Below, one piece after another: positions 150 to 34,801 of a stretch of 53,371 nucleotides of DNA; the stretch's first letter is position 1, and the number at the start of each line of letters is the position of its first letter. Source of the stretch: a virus. Taxonomy: Duplodnaviria > Caudoviricetes. The stretch spans positions 1 to 53,371 of the IMG/VR virus record IMGVR_UViG_3300048554_000080. One strand, given 5' to 3'. The notes under the pieces were generated by a model. It had not been told where the DNA came from and searched no databases. It saw only the letters and a list, made by a program, of their open reading frames with translations. The translations under genes were made by a program, and so were the position numbers.

Positions 150-3100
150 ATACTATGTGTACCCGTCCCCATATTCATTTTTGCGGCGAGGTTAGTAGAC
201 GTTATAGCGTTAATATCAGTACTATTAGCCGCGATTAACCTAGAATATGAACCAGCATCCGCCAAAACTTTAACTTGAGCGACATACGACTTACCCACCA
301 CCGTAGTTATGGATTGATAAATACCACCATTGACACCACTATTCGGTGTTAGTGTTAACTTATTAGATCCACCTGATACGGTAGACTGAGAAGCCACCCA
401 GCTAGAGGTTCCGTTTGTGAAGCCCCCATTAGTAATCAACTCAGACCCAGTAACATTTGTATCATCAGTATCCGAAAGGGTAGCTAACTTGATGTCGCCG
501 TTCATCCAACCTGTGTTGAAAGAGTCTGTTATATGGCAAGCTGACTCACCTACATCCGATAAGCCGGTTAATAAAGATATACCTTTCTCACCTGTATTAG
601 ATCCAAAGGCGGGGTATCCTTGCGCCATACTATGCGCTCTTGTAGGGAGAGGAGGGCGAGTGTTGGGCATTGAACCACCGTAATACCAAGCGTTATTGTT
701 CCATAAACCATTCAAATGACTGCCACTACTTCCCGCAGGTAAATCTTCTCCTATTTTTAGTTGTGTTGTGAGAACGCCTTGGCAAAAAGCCATCCAATAA
801 CCATTCATAACTGTAATTTTGTTTACCGCAGTACTAATTGTAGAATCAACAGTCCCATCATCCTTAATAACACTCACTCCACCATCAGTAGCAACCGCTA
901 TGGTTGACACAGGTAGTCCAGTGTCAGCATCTATAGGTGCATTGGGGAGGACTGTTATTGCTAGGTCGTTGATAACTCCATTAACAATTTTTTTGGTGGT
1001 AGATACAGTTGTAAGATCAGACGCCGTGTTTCGATTAACAATTTGTGTGTGGGAAGTTACTGTACTTCCAACACCAACTCCGGTTCCTAGCTCGGTTATA
1101 AAATTGATTGTAGTAGCCCAGTTTCCTACCAAGCCACCTGTATGTATAGAGCCGTTTAGTGCCAATACCGAGGATAGGCTTCTACCCCCGCCGATACCAT
1201 AACCTAAGTAACCTCCTGCGCTTTGCCCATTAAACACCATCCACATAGGGAGATCAGGATCGTCTCCGTCATAGATAATCATCTTATATGGTTCGGCAAC
1301 AATCACAGCAACGCTTGGGAACTTCTTAGTTGCTCCACGAGTGCTAGTGTTTAACGACTCGTTGTACCAGCTAGTGTGCTGTGTGCGATGTCTCCATGCA
1401 CCACCGTCAGAGTCTTTACTAGTGTCATAGACGAATATGTCTACGGCAGTGTTAGACTTCGACTCAGCGATAGCTTTAAGGTCTATTTCATTTACCGACA
1501 GAGTGCTTGCCATATCGACAGCACCATCGATATCTACAGCATCAAGATTAGTTGTGCCATCAATATCAACATCACCTGATATATCGAGACTTGAGGCTAC
1601 GACTTCTCCGGTTACTGTGACACCAGTTGCAGTAGTTTCAAATTTTAGACTTGGGGATGTGCCGTGGTATAACTCGACATTACTGTTGTCGTTAACAGCA
1701 AACAAGAAATTTCCAAACTCGTCGCCAACTTTAAAATTACCACCACCATTTACTTTTAATTCAATACTAGACGTTGTGGATTTAATGACGTTTGTTGCGC
1801 CATTGTAAAAAATTTCTAAATCTGTATTCGCCCCAAATACTAATTTATCATTGTCACCAAGGTTGATATTACCAGTTGTAGTTAGCCCGGTGACTGTAGG
1901 ACTAGAGGTTGGTACGAAGTTAGTACCGTTGTAGGCTAAGACATCATTCGTACTTACCCCACCCGTATTAACGTCAGTCATGTCACTGAGTGACTGATTA
2001 GACAGAACAAAGGTGCCGTAAGTTACAATCTCTAAAATATCACCTACAGCCGCGTTAGAAGCTAACTGAATGCTAGTTCCTGAAGTAGCTGTGAAGTCTG
2101 TACCATTGACGAGACGGATACCTGACAAAAATACGTCAAGGAACCCAGCGTCGTATCCGAGTGCGTTGCCGTTGTCATCGTTACCACTAAAGGTATTTTG
2201 GTTAGCTGTAGCTGTGTACTTGTAACGCTCAGATGTACCGTTGACCGCTGAACCGGCAGATTGCCACCCAGAAGACCCGTATACCTTCATGATCTGTGCA
2301 GTTGTATCAAAGTACAATGCACCGATTACGAGAGCATCACCGTCGTTGTCTACTGTAGGTGCGCTAGACTTGGCCCCTAGATAACGATCATCAAAACTAT
2401 CGTATGAAGCGGCGGCGGCATTTTGACTCGCCAAGGCCGCATTCTGGCTTGCTAAAGCGGCTGTCGCGCTGTTAGCGGCGGCGGTCTTTGAATTAGAAGC
2501 ATTAGTAGCTGATGTCGCGGCCGCTACTGCGGAACCGTGGATAGCGTCTACATAGCCTTTTCTAGCGAGATCATCTGCATTAGTAGGATCCGCCGTTGTC
2601 GTGATTTTGTTTGTGCCTAGTGTGATGTTGCCGGTCATAGTACCGCCAGCTAAAGCTAGGCGGGTATCACGTTGAGTATCCGTGTAGGCTTTGGTAGAAG
2701 CATCTTGAGTATCCGTAGGATCAGTAACACCAGTTACTTTATTGTCTCCCATAGCAATAGCCCCGGTCATAGTGCCACCGGCTAATGGAAGTTTTTCTGC
2801 TATGCTGTTTGTTACTGTGGTTGAGAAATCTGCATCGTCACCTAAAGCGGCGGCAAGCTCATTCAGAGTGTTTAATGTATCCGGCGAGGAATCTACTAGC
2901 GCGGATAGTTCAGTGTCTACATAGTTCTTTGTAGCCGCATCTTGTGCATTAGTAGGATCTGCTACGTCGGAAAGTACCGCTTGGGTAAAGTCAATTGTTC
3001 CGTTAACAGTAACATTTTCAAATGTTGAGGTACCGGATGACGCAGAAATATTACCTGTGACGTTTCCTGTTACAGCCCCGGTAAAAGTTGCATCTGTTCC

Positions 3101-20641: not shown

Positions 20642-20818
20642 GTAACAAAGGGCACAGCTAAACCGGCTAAATTATTTTTTTATTTTTTTATTACACTCCT
20701 ACATGTATATATGTATGGGTATGATTAATGTGGGAATAATGGCGTAACTGTATTTTAGTCTTGACGCGCCAGTCTTTTTTTTAGTACCTCTTTAAAACCA
20801 GAGAGGAGAGGAGAGCAG

Positions 20819-21088
20819 ATGAAAAATGATAGGAAAGTATTAGATAAAAGCATACCTCCGCTAGGTTACGAAATGACAATTGAAGAAGCATGGCAGGGTA
20901 TCGCCAACTTTTACGATGCCATAGAAATAGCTGAAGCCGGGCATCGTGCCGATTTTATTCAACTAAACCATTCTAAAGTAGTCATCAAGGCAGATCGGGC
21001 GGGAGAAAATCCTGATGCGATGATAACAGTCTGCCCTGACAAGTGTCCCGAATATGGGGCACCACATTTAAAATTAGTCGAAGACTAA
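20819..21088 (+). CDS. Hypothetical protein (89 aa)
   Basis: Strong GAGGAGAGGAG RBS; TTGACG promoter-like element at 20761. Confidence 0.7.
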   Translation: MKNDRKVLDKSIPPLGYEMTIEEAWQGIANFYDAIEIAEAGHRADFIQLNHSKVVIKADRAGENPDAMITVCPDKCPEYGAPHLKLVED

Positions 21089-21106
21089 ATCTACCTTCAT
21101 CACAAT

Positions 21107-21219
21107 AAAAAAAGGCCCCGAAACGTCCAAAAAGGATATTCCGGGGCCTTTGGTGGTGCCATTTTAAGGGGGAAGTGGCACCTCGCAGTGTTAAGAGCGG
21201 GAGGAGTACTCCTAACAGT
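21107..21219 (-). ncRNA. Candidate sRNA-A with anti-SD loops (AbcR/cuckoo-like)
   Basis: Promoter TTGACC-17-TAGTCT (21252-21224); hairpin with UACUCCUCCCG loop; hairpin with UUCCCCCUUAAA loop; GC-rich terminator plus U7. Confidence 0.65.
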
Positions 21220-21267
21220 ATTAAGACTACTATAATGCCCTTAGTAGGTCAACACTTATACCCATAG

Positions 21268-21296
21268 TTGACGCGCCAGTTTTTTTTAGTTATCGT
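21268..21296 (+). promoter_or_regulatory. Integrase promoter
   Basis: TTGACG-17 nt-TATCGT; TTGACGCGCCAGT...TTTTTAGT is also present at 20761. Confidence 0.6.
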
Positions 21297-21330
21297 ATTT
21301 ACCGAACTCATAACTTTAAGGGGTATACGA

Positions 21331-22416
21331 ATGACAAAATATTTAGAAGAAAGGACAACGGCGGATGGAAAGGTGTTTTATGCCTTCAACCCATCCCGGG
21401 GAGTAAGAGACGCATTGAATCTGCGTTACCAGAAGTTCCCCAACAAGCGTGATGCTGTGAAGTATTGCCAGCAAGTGGCGCTAGAATTTAGTTTGCACCG
21501 CCGCAAGCATGAAGGCACGATCAAAGTCGATGACGATAGTGTAGAAGGCTTGATTAATTTCTATAAAACCACGCAAGAGTGGATAAAATTAGCTGATAAC
21601 AGCAAAACTTTCTACAATTTACAGCTAAGAACAGCCACAGAGATGCAATTAGACGCATCTAAACTCGCATTTGGTCAAGTAAAGGCAAAAAACATCACTG
21701 CTACACAAGCAGACAAGCTGTTTACGCTTATCCAGCGGGAATATAGCGACCATAGAGCCAGCCACGTCGTTAAAGTACTGAGGAAAGTATACAACGTAGG
21801 CTACCGACACGACAAAGTGCCCGCAAACCCGTTCAGTAATATGAAAATACCCGGCTTGGCTACTCGCAAGGTACTCTGGGAGCCCAAACAGGTGTTTAAA
21901 TTGATCGATACAGCCGACAAGATGGGGTATCCATCTATCGGTACGGTGACTTTGCTTACCTACGACCTCTGTGCAAGGCCCGGGGACATGAGACAACTAA
22001 CGTGGGCGAATTACCACGACAGTCAGTTTGCTTATGTTCAGGAAAAGACTAAAACCATAATGGGGGTAGCCGCTTCTCCTAGGCTCGTAGAGAGGTTGAA
22101 GAAGTATCATCAATACGATTCATCAGATATAGAACGTGAAGGTTGTATTGTGGTCTGTGAGACTACGGCAATGCCGTACAGCAAAGACCTACTGGTCAAA
22201 TACTTTGCCCGGATTAGGAAACAAGCGGGGCTACCCTCGCACCTACAACTACGGGATCTCCGCAGGACAGGTGCAACCGAGATGGCCGAGGCTGGTTGTA
22301 CAGAAGATGAACTGAGAGCCGTTACGGGGCACCAATCCCGTGAGATCTTGGCGACCTACGTCCGACCAACAATGAAGTTAGCAACGTCCGCAATCAACAA
22401 GAGGTTCGCATCGTGA
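21331..22416 (+). CDS. int: Tyrosine integrase (true start MTKYLE at 21331)
   Basis: CARPGD (R), QEKT (K), LRDLRRT, VTGH and TY catalytic motifs; AAGGGG RBS; attP downstream. Confidence 0.9.
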   Translation: MTKYLEERTTADGKVFYAFNPSRGVRDALNLRYQKFPNKRDAVKYCQQVALEFSLHRRKHEGTIKVDDDSVEGLINFYKTTQEWIKLADNSKTFYNLQLRTATEMQLDASKLAFGQVKAKNITATQADKLFTLIQREYSDHRASHVVKVLRKVYNVGYRHDKVPANPFSNMKIPGLATRKVLWEPKQVFKLIDTADKMGYPSIGTVTLLTYDLCARPGDMRQLTWANYHDSQFAYVQEKTKTIMGVAASPRLVERLKKYHQYDSSDIEREGCIVVCETTAMPYSKDLLVKYFARIRKQAGLPSHLQLRDLRRTGATEMAEAGCTEDELRAVTGHQSREILATYVRPTMKLATSAINKRFAS

Positions 22417-22664
22417 GGATGCAAGGGGTGCCTCATTACCCCGACCTCATAATATGTGATTTCTGCGGGAGATCTACTCGCGGAGTCATCTACCCAAACG
22501 AGCCTGATTCGGTTAAATGCACATCATGTCATATGGAATTAACTGATGTAGCAACTAGTGTAGTGGTTAACGGAGAGTGGAAAAACGACCAAAAACGATC
22601 ACTCCACTCCACTGATATAGTTACTGACGCTCTAAATCACTTAGCAAACAATGACTTAGACTAG
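22413..22664 (+). CDS. Small zinc-ribbon protein
   Basis: CDFC...CTSC; GTGA overlap with int; ends 3 nt before the attP core. Confidence 0.6.
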   Translation: MRMQGVPHYPDLIICDFCGRSTRGVIYPNEPDSVKCTSCHMELTDVATSVVVNGEWKNDQKRSLHSTDIVTDALNHLANNDLD

Positions 22665-22667
22665 ACT

Positions 22668-22708
22668 TGGTTGCGGGAGTAGGATTTGAACCTACGACCT
22701 TCAGGTTA
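22668..22708 (-). mobile_element. attP core: 3' half of tRNA-fMet(CAT)
   Basis: Minus strand TAACCTGAAGGTCGTAGGTTCAAATCCTACTCCCGCAACCA is initiator tRNA from the anticodon loop to CCA; 5' half absent; flanked by IHF-like AACAATGASTTA sites (~22648, ~22726). Confidence 0.9.
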
Positions 22709-22796
22709 GGTAGAAGTTCAATAATAACAATGAGTTAACTAGGGGTTTAATGGTTAAGCGCATAACTAATGTAATAGTTGAACTATAGTAAAACTG

Positions 22797-22825
22797 TTGA
22801 CGGATGCTAAAAACCATGTTAAAAA
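22797..22825 (+). promoter_or_regulatory. Promoter of the replication operon
   Basis: TTGACG-17 nt-TAAAAA with extended TG. Confidence 0.55.
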
Positions 22826-22879
22826 AGCGAGGCCGCTCCGGGGCCGAGCTACCCCTAATACTCGTTTTAAGGGAGACTT

Positions 22880-23695
22880 ATGTATAACCGGCAGGAACAA
22901 ATCGAGATAATAAAATCGATTAAAGTAAGCGAAGGGGAATCGAAAACAATCGACTGTCCCTTTTGTTACGGTAAAAAGAAATTCAGCATAACGAATAAAG
23001 ACGGTACCGTTCTTTGGAATTGCTACAAAGCATCATGCTCGATCAAGGGTGCGTATCGCAAAGGAATGACACTGTCCCTGATCAAGAACCGGGTTGGTGT
23101 TAAGAAAGAAACTCTCGGTGAATTTCTGGCAAGAGAGATAAACGAACGTGGACTCACACTTCGACGGATACCCGAGATCCTATCTCAACCAAAGAACCAC
23201 ACCTACGTCATGAATTATCTTGAAGAGAACGGGTGTATACCCGCCTTCGACCAAGGCTTGGTTAAAATACTGTATGCCCCGGCTGACAATCGTTGTTTGT
23301 TTATGATGAACGATGGTAAGGGTGCCGTCGGTAGAGCCCTCGGGGATAACACTCCTAAGTGGATGTCCTACGGAGATACCTCGGGTGCGTTAACTGTTGG
23401 AACCTCGGATGTGGCTGTAATTGTTGAAGATGCACCGTCTGCTTGTGCCGTTGGAGTCATTGATGGGTACGCTGGTGTCGCTATTTTAGGCACTAATTTG
23501 AGTACAAAACAGAAACAAAGTCTCAAAAACTACCGAAAGATTATTATTTGTCTTGACAATGATGCTAAAGGTAAAGCTATAAAGCTGTTAAGGCAATTGC
23601 AAGGGTTAGTAGACTGTACTGTTAAGTTCATTGCTAAAGACCTGAAGTATTGCCCAAGTGAGGAAATAACAAAGGTGTTAGAGAATGAAATGTAG
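22880..23695 (+). CDS. DNA primase (Zn finger plus TOPRIM)
   Basis: CPFC...CYKASC; IVED; AILGT; CLDNDA. Confidence 0.85.
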   Translation: MYNRQEQIEIIKSIKVSEGESKTIDCPFCYGKKKFSITNKDGTVLWNCYKASCSIKGAYRKGMTLSLIKNRVGVKKETLGEFLAREINERGLTLRRIPEILSQPKNHTYVMNYLEENGCIPAFDQGLVKILYAPADNRCLFMMNDGKGAVGRALGDNTPKWMSYGDTSGALTVGTSDVAVIVEDAPSACAVGVIDGYAGVAILGTNLSTKQKQSLKNYRKIIICLDNDAKGKAIKLLRQLQGLVDCTVKFIAKDLKYCPSEEITKVLENEM

Positions 23696-34724: not shown

Positions 34725-34801
34725 GCGCTTGTAGCTCAGTTGGATAGAGCGTCCGGCTACGAACCGGAAGGTCGGGAGTTCGAGTCTTCCCAAGTGCGCC
34801 A
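34725..34801 (+). tRNA. tRNA-Arg(ACG)
   Basis: Full cloverleaf: GCGCTTG/CAAGTGC acceptor, GCTC/GAGC D-stem, TCCGG-CTACGAA-CCGGA anticodon arm, GTTCGA T-loop, encoded CCA. Confidence 0.92.

Follow-up and report, generated by a model that had tools for sequence, protein, structure and literature searches.

The c4 RNA of phages P1 and P7 and the sar RNA of P22 belong to the phage immunity and antisense RNAs, which mask a ribosome-binding site (RBS). The RNA proposed here would resemble them as a small phage RNA from a lysogeny region with exposed bases complementary to the RBS of a lytic-growth gene. However, c4 and sar derive by processing from the operon that they control, or are antisense to it, whereas the present RNA would be a separate gene located 1.6 kb from its proposed target; it also carries a generic anti-Shine-Dalgarno (anti-SD) seed and showed no sequence or structure relation to either of them in Rfam searches. 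A second comparison is with the cuckoo family (ar14), whose RNAs are described as having from two to four hairpins side by side, with stems that vary and CCUCCUCCC in every loop (PMC4615179; PMC10746234). CcsR is described from the 3' UTR of a DUF1127 gene, and CcsR1-4 are reported to alter C1 metabolism and oxidative-stress resistance (PMC8034643), while NfeR1 is described as silencing ntrB through an 8-nt anti-SD pairing at the start region (PMC10746234). We propose that the phage studied here encodes a cuckoo-like anti-SD sRNA which acts in trans to repress translation of primase, and perhaps of other genes. With transcription, ends and targets all predicted from sequence, we consider this proposal probable, though well short of certain.

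The stretch of DNA that was analysed (the window) is a complete virus record of 53,371 bp. Its PolA is 60% identical to that of CRP-3, 58.5% to that of CRP-235 and 55.7% to that of CRP-212, all Roseobacter phages with Rhodobacteraceae hosts and the nearest cultured relatives of the window, and 39% identical to that of the SAR116 phage HMO-2011. On these PolA identities the window is assigned to the HMO-2011-type phages, and its host is probably a roseobacter. The sRNA unit is housed in a 242-bp gap between ORF 20819 (20819-21088, plus strand; 89 amino acids, without a Pfam or PHROG family) and the tyrosine integrase gene, int (21331-22416, plus strand; PF00589). Located 3' of int are primase, which is the first gene (start codon at 22880) of a primase-helicase-polymerase block, a DnaB-type helicase, PolA with a DnaJ-like insert, a Cas4-like exonuclease and endonuclease I, together with a dNMP kinase, both ribonucleotide reductase subunits and MazG. 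A tRNA-Arg(ACG) gene (34725-34801, plus strand) is found where the plus-strand replication block meets a minus-strand block. We also note a 13-mer, TTGACGCGCCAGT, that occurs twice on the plus strand (20761-20773 and 21268-21280), each time on the -35 side of a promoter-like site, one preceding ORF 20819 and the other int; two copies are no more than shuffled sequences give. In distant relatives a motif like it, TTGACGTGCCAGT or TGACGTGCGAGT, follows the stop codon of the upstream gene and precedes the terminator of that gene, a position in which it cannot be a normal promoter. The motif may be an operator or another protein-binding site.

The first-pass annotation had described a TTGACC-17-TAGTCT promoter, two hairpins and a GC-rich terminator with seven U residues on the minus strand of the gap, and all of these parts lie where it had placed them. 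The -35 hexamer TTGACC (21247-21252, minus strand) has a TTG that is invariant, and an AC that is nearly so, in the 10 members of the window clade, whose integrases are 63-100% identical. After a 17-nt spacer comes the -10 hexamer TAGTCT (21224-21229, minus strand), with T1, A2 and T6 invariant in 10/10, although relatives vary it as TAGTAT, TATTAT, TATGAT, TATAGT or TATACT. The predicted sRNA (21107-21217, minus strand) is about 111 nt long, taking a start about 7 nt past the -10 and an end at the last U of the run. It would be transcribed, from 21217 to 21107, from this sigma-70-type promoter of its own, back to back with the integrase promoter (21268-21296, plus strand), and would fold into two hairpins followed by a terminator hairpin. 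Hairpin 1 (21189-21217, minus strand) has a stem of 9-10 bp and the loop ACUCCUCCC at 21199-21207, and hairpin 2 (21155-21182, minus strand) has a 7-bp stem, GGUGCCA/UGGCACC, around a 14-nt loop, CUUCCCCCUUAAAA, at 21162-21175. The intrinsic terminator (21107-21150, minus strand) consists of an extended GC hairpin (21150-21114) with a U7 run directly behind it (21113-21107), and probably also terminates, weakly, the plus-strand transcripts of ORF 20819. A simple consensus scan, which called the integrase promoter, called neither the promoter nor the terminator of the sRNA, because the weak -10 of the window matches TATAAT at only 3/6 positions and the terminator loop is too long. The only ATG-led frame within the sRNA has 20 codons, and its ATG is lost in the relative L004; small ORFs on either strand were rejected as they are not conserved across the relatives. 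A tRNA-like reading of GGUGCCA...UGGCACC-ACCA was likewise rejected, as the relatives have ACCACU and ARAGORN finds nothing there. A promoter, a Rho-independent terminator and a conserved fold, with no conserved ORF, are the marks of an independent, intrinsically terminated sRNA gene, and we infer that such a gene is predicted here on the minus strand, divergent from int, with its transcription and ends read from these signals.

A blastn search with 20700-21400 against 50,697 phage records gave no match, and the relatives were reached through protein searches only. These yielded 69 related viral loci with an integrase, of which 61 were tabulated; three of the latter had too little upstream sequence and nine were duplicates, leaving 49 unique integrase-upstream regions. 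The unit is conserved in 46 of the 49, those of the three cultured roseophages included. In each of the 46, the strand opposite int combines a sigma-70-like promoter with a C-rich motif, which reads CCUCCC, CUCCC or UCCCC, and with a GC hairpin that leads into a U-run. A covariance model, R1, scored 127 bits at the window and 102-141 bits in 12 related loci. Most of the relatives' sRNAs are shorter, at 65-100 nt, and match neither the ar14 nor the CcsR1 model. The GC hairpin with its minus-strand T-run is present throughout, although an automatic perfect-stem finder called only part of them. In CRP-3, CRP-235 and CRP-212 the unit occupies an unannotated gap of about 250 bp, and a separate plus-strand terminator lies just ahead of it; two terminators back to back argue for a converging minus-strand transcription unit. 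The CRP-235-type sRNA has a UCAUCCAC linker. The three loci that lack the sRNA (L019, L021 and L025) have instead an AT-rich region with repeated AACGGTTA-type words upstream of int. In bacterial genome contigs, an integrase profile search gave 123 pattern hits, none of them confirmed, and found no prophage. R1, run with stricter filters over a sample of 151 genomes from the family of a Lentibacter metagenome-assembled genome (MAG), gave one weak match of 25.7 bits and no prophage-level copy. Our searches of the literature on HMO-2011-type phages, roseophages, phage anti-SD sRNAs and CcsR found no published description of the element, and the terms 'sRNA' and 'small RNA' are absent from the main texts of the roseophage description papers.

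The first-pass annotation had likened the RNA both to AbcR (ar15) and to cuckoo RNAs, and the cuckoo half of the comparison is the one that stood. In a scan of 141 nt, the ar14 model (RF02344) aligned over its full length (1-123 of 123) to 21109-21225 on the minus strand with 30.8 bits (E 1.6e-4), a score under the Rfam gathering cut-off of 58.8 bits; searches of 1.3 kb and of the whole record missed this alignment through filter losses. Rfam holds an ar15 model; the 141-nt scan gave 23 matches at E<=10, with neither ar15 nor AbcR among them, and the other Rfam scans gave neither of the two. CcsR1 (RF02791) gave 10.2 bits (E 3.8) on the window sRNA against a cut-off of 65.3 bits, and the position differs from that of CcsR1, as the neighbouring ORF 20819 has no Pfam family and the sRNA has its own promoter. 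As a host control we used a two-hairpin cuckoo RNA in the Lentibacter MAG, which scored 25.8 bits with R1. On ar14 and CcsR1 this host RNA scored 30.1 and 31.4 bits respectively, under both Rfam cut-offs, and the likeness of the phage RNA to ar14 is therefore equal to that of a genuine host member. The host RNA (L199 1507-1610, minus strand) has CUCCUCCC loops and lies directly behind a small ORF, as in the ccaF1-CcsR arrangement.

The phage RNA shares with NfeR1 and CcsR1-4 the adjacent hairpins, variable stems, C-rich anti-SD loops and Rhodobacteraceae hosts, and presumably also the occlusion of an RBS as described for these RNAs (PMC4615179; PMC10746234; PMC8034643). Three hairpins are present in both the minimum free energy (MFE) and consensus folds, within the range for cuckoo RNAs, and their stems covary. 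The family motif CCUCCUCCC, however, is not in every loop: loop 1, ACUCCUCCC, has 8/9 of its letters, loop 2 is CUUCCCCCUUAAAA and the terminator loop has no motif. As only one loop has the motif, and the sRNAs of CRP-235 and CRP-212 match neither ar14 nor CcsR1, we leave the phage RNA outside the family. It differs further in being borne by a phage beside an integrase gene, in having a sigma-70-type promoter where cuckoo RNAs arise by processing of a DUF1127 mRNA or depend on a stress promoter, and in a second loop with another C-run that matches the RBS of the phage primase. We suggest that the phage RNA works like a cuckoo RNA, and it may be derived from one. The RsaE/RoxS RNAs of Firmicutes and anti-hemB of Burkholderia also combine a hairpin, a C-rich unpaired seed and a terminator, but they belong to unrelated host groups and score below the gathering cut-offs (22.5 bits for anti-hemB on the CRP-212 sRNA), and the likeness is an analogy only. 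In L059 there is a further sub-threshold RsaE/RoxS-like match (1419-1514, minus strand; 32.9 bits, E 0.12) about 250 nt beyond its sRNA, which could be a second C-rich sRNA.

The loops of the folded RNA would display C-rich anti-SD sequences, CUCCUCCC in loop 1 and CUUCCCCCUUAAAA in loop 2, and pairing in trans with ribosome-binding sites would block the initiation of translation, as with the cuckoo/ar14 RNAs CcsR1-4 and NfeR1. The first-pass annotation had noted that loop 2 can pair over 9 nt with the RBS of integrase and with that of primase, and both matches are exact. Loop 2 mirrors the unusual SD of primase, UUUUAAGGG(G), making nine contiguous pairs with the proposed target at 22865-22873 (plus strand) before a mismatch, and nine pairs with the integrase SD region at 21315-21323 (plus strand), a weak candidate for a secondary target. 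Complements of the 9-mer number 49 genome-wide against a length-based estimate of about 43, and the count alone is therefore at chance level. When both loops were scored against 66 ORF start regions, the best duplex of loop 2 was with primase (-14.7 kcal/mol), with polA third (-13.5 kcal/mol), and that of loop 1 was with ORF 20819 (-19.9 kcal/mol). Loop 1 would be a generic anti-SD seed that could reach ORF 20819 or host mRNAs.

The comparison of relatives separates the two candidate targets of loop 2. The integrase helix of nine pairs in the window falls to 5-7 in nine relatives, where cognate and non-cognate pairs do equally well. With primase, the longest Watson-Crick helix between the sRNA and its cognate start region is 9 in the window, 12 in L004 and L005, 14 (the whole loop) in L007, 9 in L011 and L012 and 8 in L013, so that a match of 8-14 contiguous bases is found in 5/8 clade members. 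Between L007 and L004 a C to U change in the loop is matched by a G to A change in the RBS, one compensatory event. As a null we took the fraction of 33-nt windows from the same locus with a helix at least as long, which was 0.003 for the window, 0/3,851 for L004, 0/3,852 for L007, 0.014 for L011 and 0.018 for L013. In three other sRNA subtypes, other segments of the sRNA match the cognate primase start region: L016 makes 10 bp (0/3,126), L020 and L024 make 10 and 9 bp (0.006 and 0.007), and types C and D make 7-8 bp over the primase SD and start codon (0.023-0.049). The test covered 25 of the 46 unique loci, as representatives, and in 13 of the 25 the complementarity was not above chance; these are L008, L009 and L014 of the window clade and, outside it, L017 and L018, the loci of types A and B, and L057, L059 and L061. 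RNAduplex results on long segments were discarded, as they consisted of helices with large interior loops. Of the regulation of integration and replication genes that had been suggested earlier, the primase RBS thus has comparative support and the integrase does not hold up as a specific target. We infer that primase mRNA is the best-supported target in the clade of the window, although not a universal one; specificity is hard to prove because anti-SD loops pair with any strong SD. Primase itself is preceded by a promoter-like site, TTGACG-17-TAAAAA (22790-22880, plus strand), and then by a GC hairpin in the 5' UTR which, read on the minus strand (22815-22845), is followed by a U6 run and could be a second minus-strand terminator. 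A CUACCC(C) box upstream of the primase SD is conserved in all clade members.

Another possibility, to which we give a clearly lower probability, is that the sRNA is constitutive and chiefly mimics the CcsR/cuckoo RNAs of the host, retuning host mRNAs for metabolism and stress, with the matches to phage RBSs as by-products. The 8/9 motif letters in loop 1 and the full-length ar14 alignment are what such mimicry would predict, and likely hosts do have two-hairpin cuckoo RNAs with near-identical loops. It is also the CCUCCC-type motif, and not the primase-matching segment, that is common to all 46 RNAs, and the 13/25 loci without primase complementarity fit the same explanation, as does the described effect of CcsR1-4 on C1 metabolism and oxidative-stress resistance (PMC8034643). 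Against this, loop 2/primase matches of 12-14 bp with a compensatory change could hardly be by-products, and we continue to favour repression of primase by a cuckoo-like RNA.

The sRNA and integrase promoters diverge with their -35 elements about 15 bp apart, and the terminator also closes ORF 20819 in the window. Both would suit a device acting in cis, in which a bidirectional terminator and a divergent promoter insulate the integrase from read-through or tune its promoter by interference and the RNA itself has no function. About 14 sequence types can be distinguished among the relatives, however, in which the stems vary and covary (CAGGC/GCCUG, UAGGC/GCCUA, GUAGUC/GACUAC and GUAGAC/GUCUAC are examples) while the loop motif stays constant. 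The C-rich motif has an unpaired probability above 0.5 in 42/46 RNAs, with a mean of 0.91 compared with 0.41 for the remaining RNA. A mere insulator requires neither conserved loops nor an unpaired motif, and we therefore regard the cis device as improbable. The short-form stems were read directly from the sequences, as a MAFFT alignment of 20 of them misaligned the first hairpin and left the consensus fold uninformative.

The strand of the proposed sRNA was assessed from the fold. On the minus strand, 136 nt fold with -52.7 kcal/mol (z = -6.9; 0/200 shuffles were as stable), compared with z = -4.55 on the plus strand. For the window clade, RNAalifold gave 29 pairs and -31.05 kcal/mol on the minus strand but 15 pairs and -15.26 kcal/mol on the plus strand. 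Across the 10 clade members 95.9% of the 290 cells (pair positions by sequence) can pair, against 32-55% in slid controls, and seven pairs show compensatory changes, with a covariation score of 0.285 versus 0.226 in shuffles, none of 500 of which reached it. In hairpin 1 all cells pair (100/100), 25 of them as G-U pairs that the plus strand would turn into mismatches; in hairpin 2, 98.6% of cells pair, 3/7 pairs have compensatory changes and the C-run of the loop is conserved. A natural variant has no differences in 21063-21264, which is weak evidence as it compares contigs only, from two runs; the variant differs at six positions in 21009-21062 and at nine in 21283-21800.

An element functional on the plus strand, belonging to the 3' UTR or the read-through transcript of ORF 20819 and showing GGA and GGGAGG in its loops, for example as a protein-binding decoy, has some of the energies in its favour. 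Hairpin 2 of the window makes 11 pairs on the plus strand and seven on the minus, and the plus-strand MFE is slightly lower in 6/10 clade members, the window included. That lower MFE arises because hairpin 2 extends on the plus strand, and the extension is not conserved; with automatic boundaries, the minus strand is the more stable in 31/41 RNAs. The minus strand is favoured because the conserved helices hold 47 G-U cells, which would become plus-strand mismatches, against two A-C cells. The caveat of the first-pass annotation that the wobble pairs of hairpin 2 fit the plus strand slightly better is thus correct for the non-conserved extension in the window and reversed for the conserved helices. 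On the plus strand, moreover, the terminator would precede the hairpins, and in relatives the hairpin leads into a T-run on the minus strand and is preceded by an A-run on the plus strand. With a plus-strand consensus fold of only 15 pairs, we consider this reading very improbable.

The probable attP core (22668-22708, minus strand), found through a perfect T-arm motif, reproduces exactly, over 41 nt, the 3' end of alphaproteobacterial initiator tRNA-Met(CAT) and is located between ORF 22413-22664 and primase and 1.4 kb from the sRNA. At least 121 bacterial contigs contain an exact match to a 32-mer from it, and many of these contigs are from Rhodobacteraceae. The tRNA fragment is found in 25/27 related loci examined, the other two being only 2 kb long, and in 23 loci it is downstream of int on the minus strand. 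CRP-3 is described as integrating into tRNA-Met(CAT) with a core that overlaps the tRNA 3' end (PMC6918029). From the position of the tRNA fragment, the order of the module is sRNA, int, small ORF, attP and primase. A structured DNA without an RNA gene, serving as attP or as an integrase-binding region, would suit the location directly upstream of int, a frequent attP position, but the tRNA-Met copy elsewhere, at 22668-22708, its retention in relatives and the use of this tRNA by CRP-3 (PMC6918029) contradict an attP within the sRNA region, which we rejected, and the G-U pattern indicates selection at the RNA level, so we give this reading next to no credence. In L019 and L021 the tRNA fragment is upstream of int on the plus strand, and L009, L061 and L021 have a different tRNA fragment, which suggests that the integration site was switched in these three. 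In the bacterial contigs L082, L111, L078 and L086, non-tRNA sequence precedes the tRNA-fMet 3' segment, and these have the appearance of incomplete tRNA copies, left behind where elements had used this integration site.

The place of a cuckoo-like sRNA in the integrase module bears on lysogeny. Among 37 ORFs of the window that were scanned with Pfam, none matched an HTH or CI-like repressor, which is weak negative evidence; speculatively, it leaves room for an RNA-based switch. The sRNA might then be a lysogeny/replication switch, an RNA immunity factor that silences primase and so quiets the prophage or times early infection, with seed and primase RBS co-evolving by lineage and a cuckoo-type loop plugging the phage into the CcsR stress regulon of the host. 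This extension is tentative, and on balance we think it unlikely. HMO-2011-type phages have been described as a dominant group of marine viruses with a broad distribution (PMC9038755), and they infect RCA roseobacters, SAR116 and SAR11. For the temperate phages of this type no repressor protein has been recognised, and an sRNA gene conserved in the integrase module offers a testable handle on the control of lysogeny and replication in this group. The sRNA would be a phage-borne counterpart of the cuckoo/CcsR regulators of the host.
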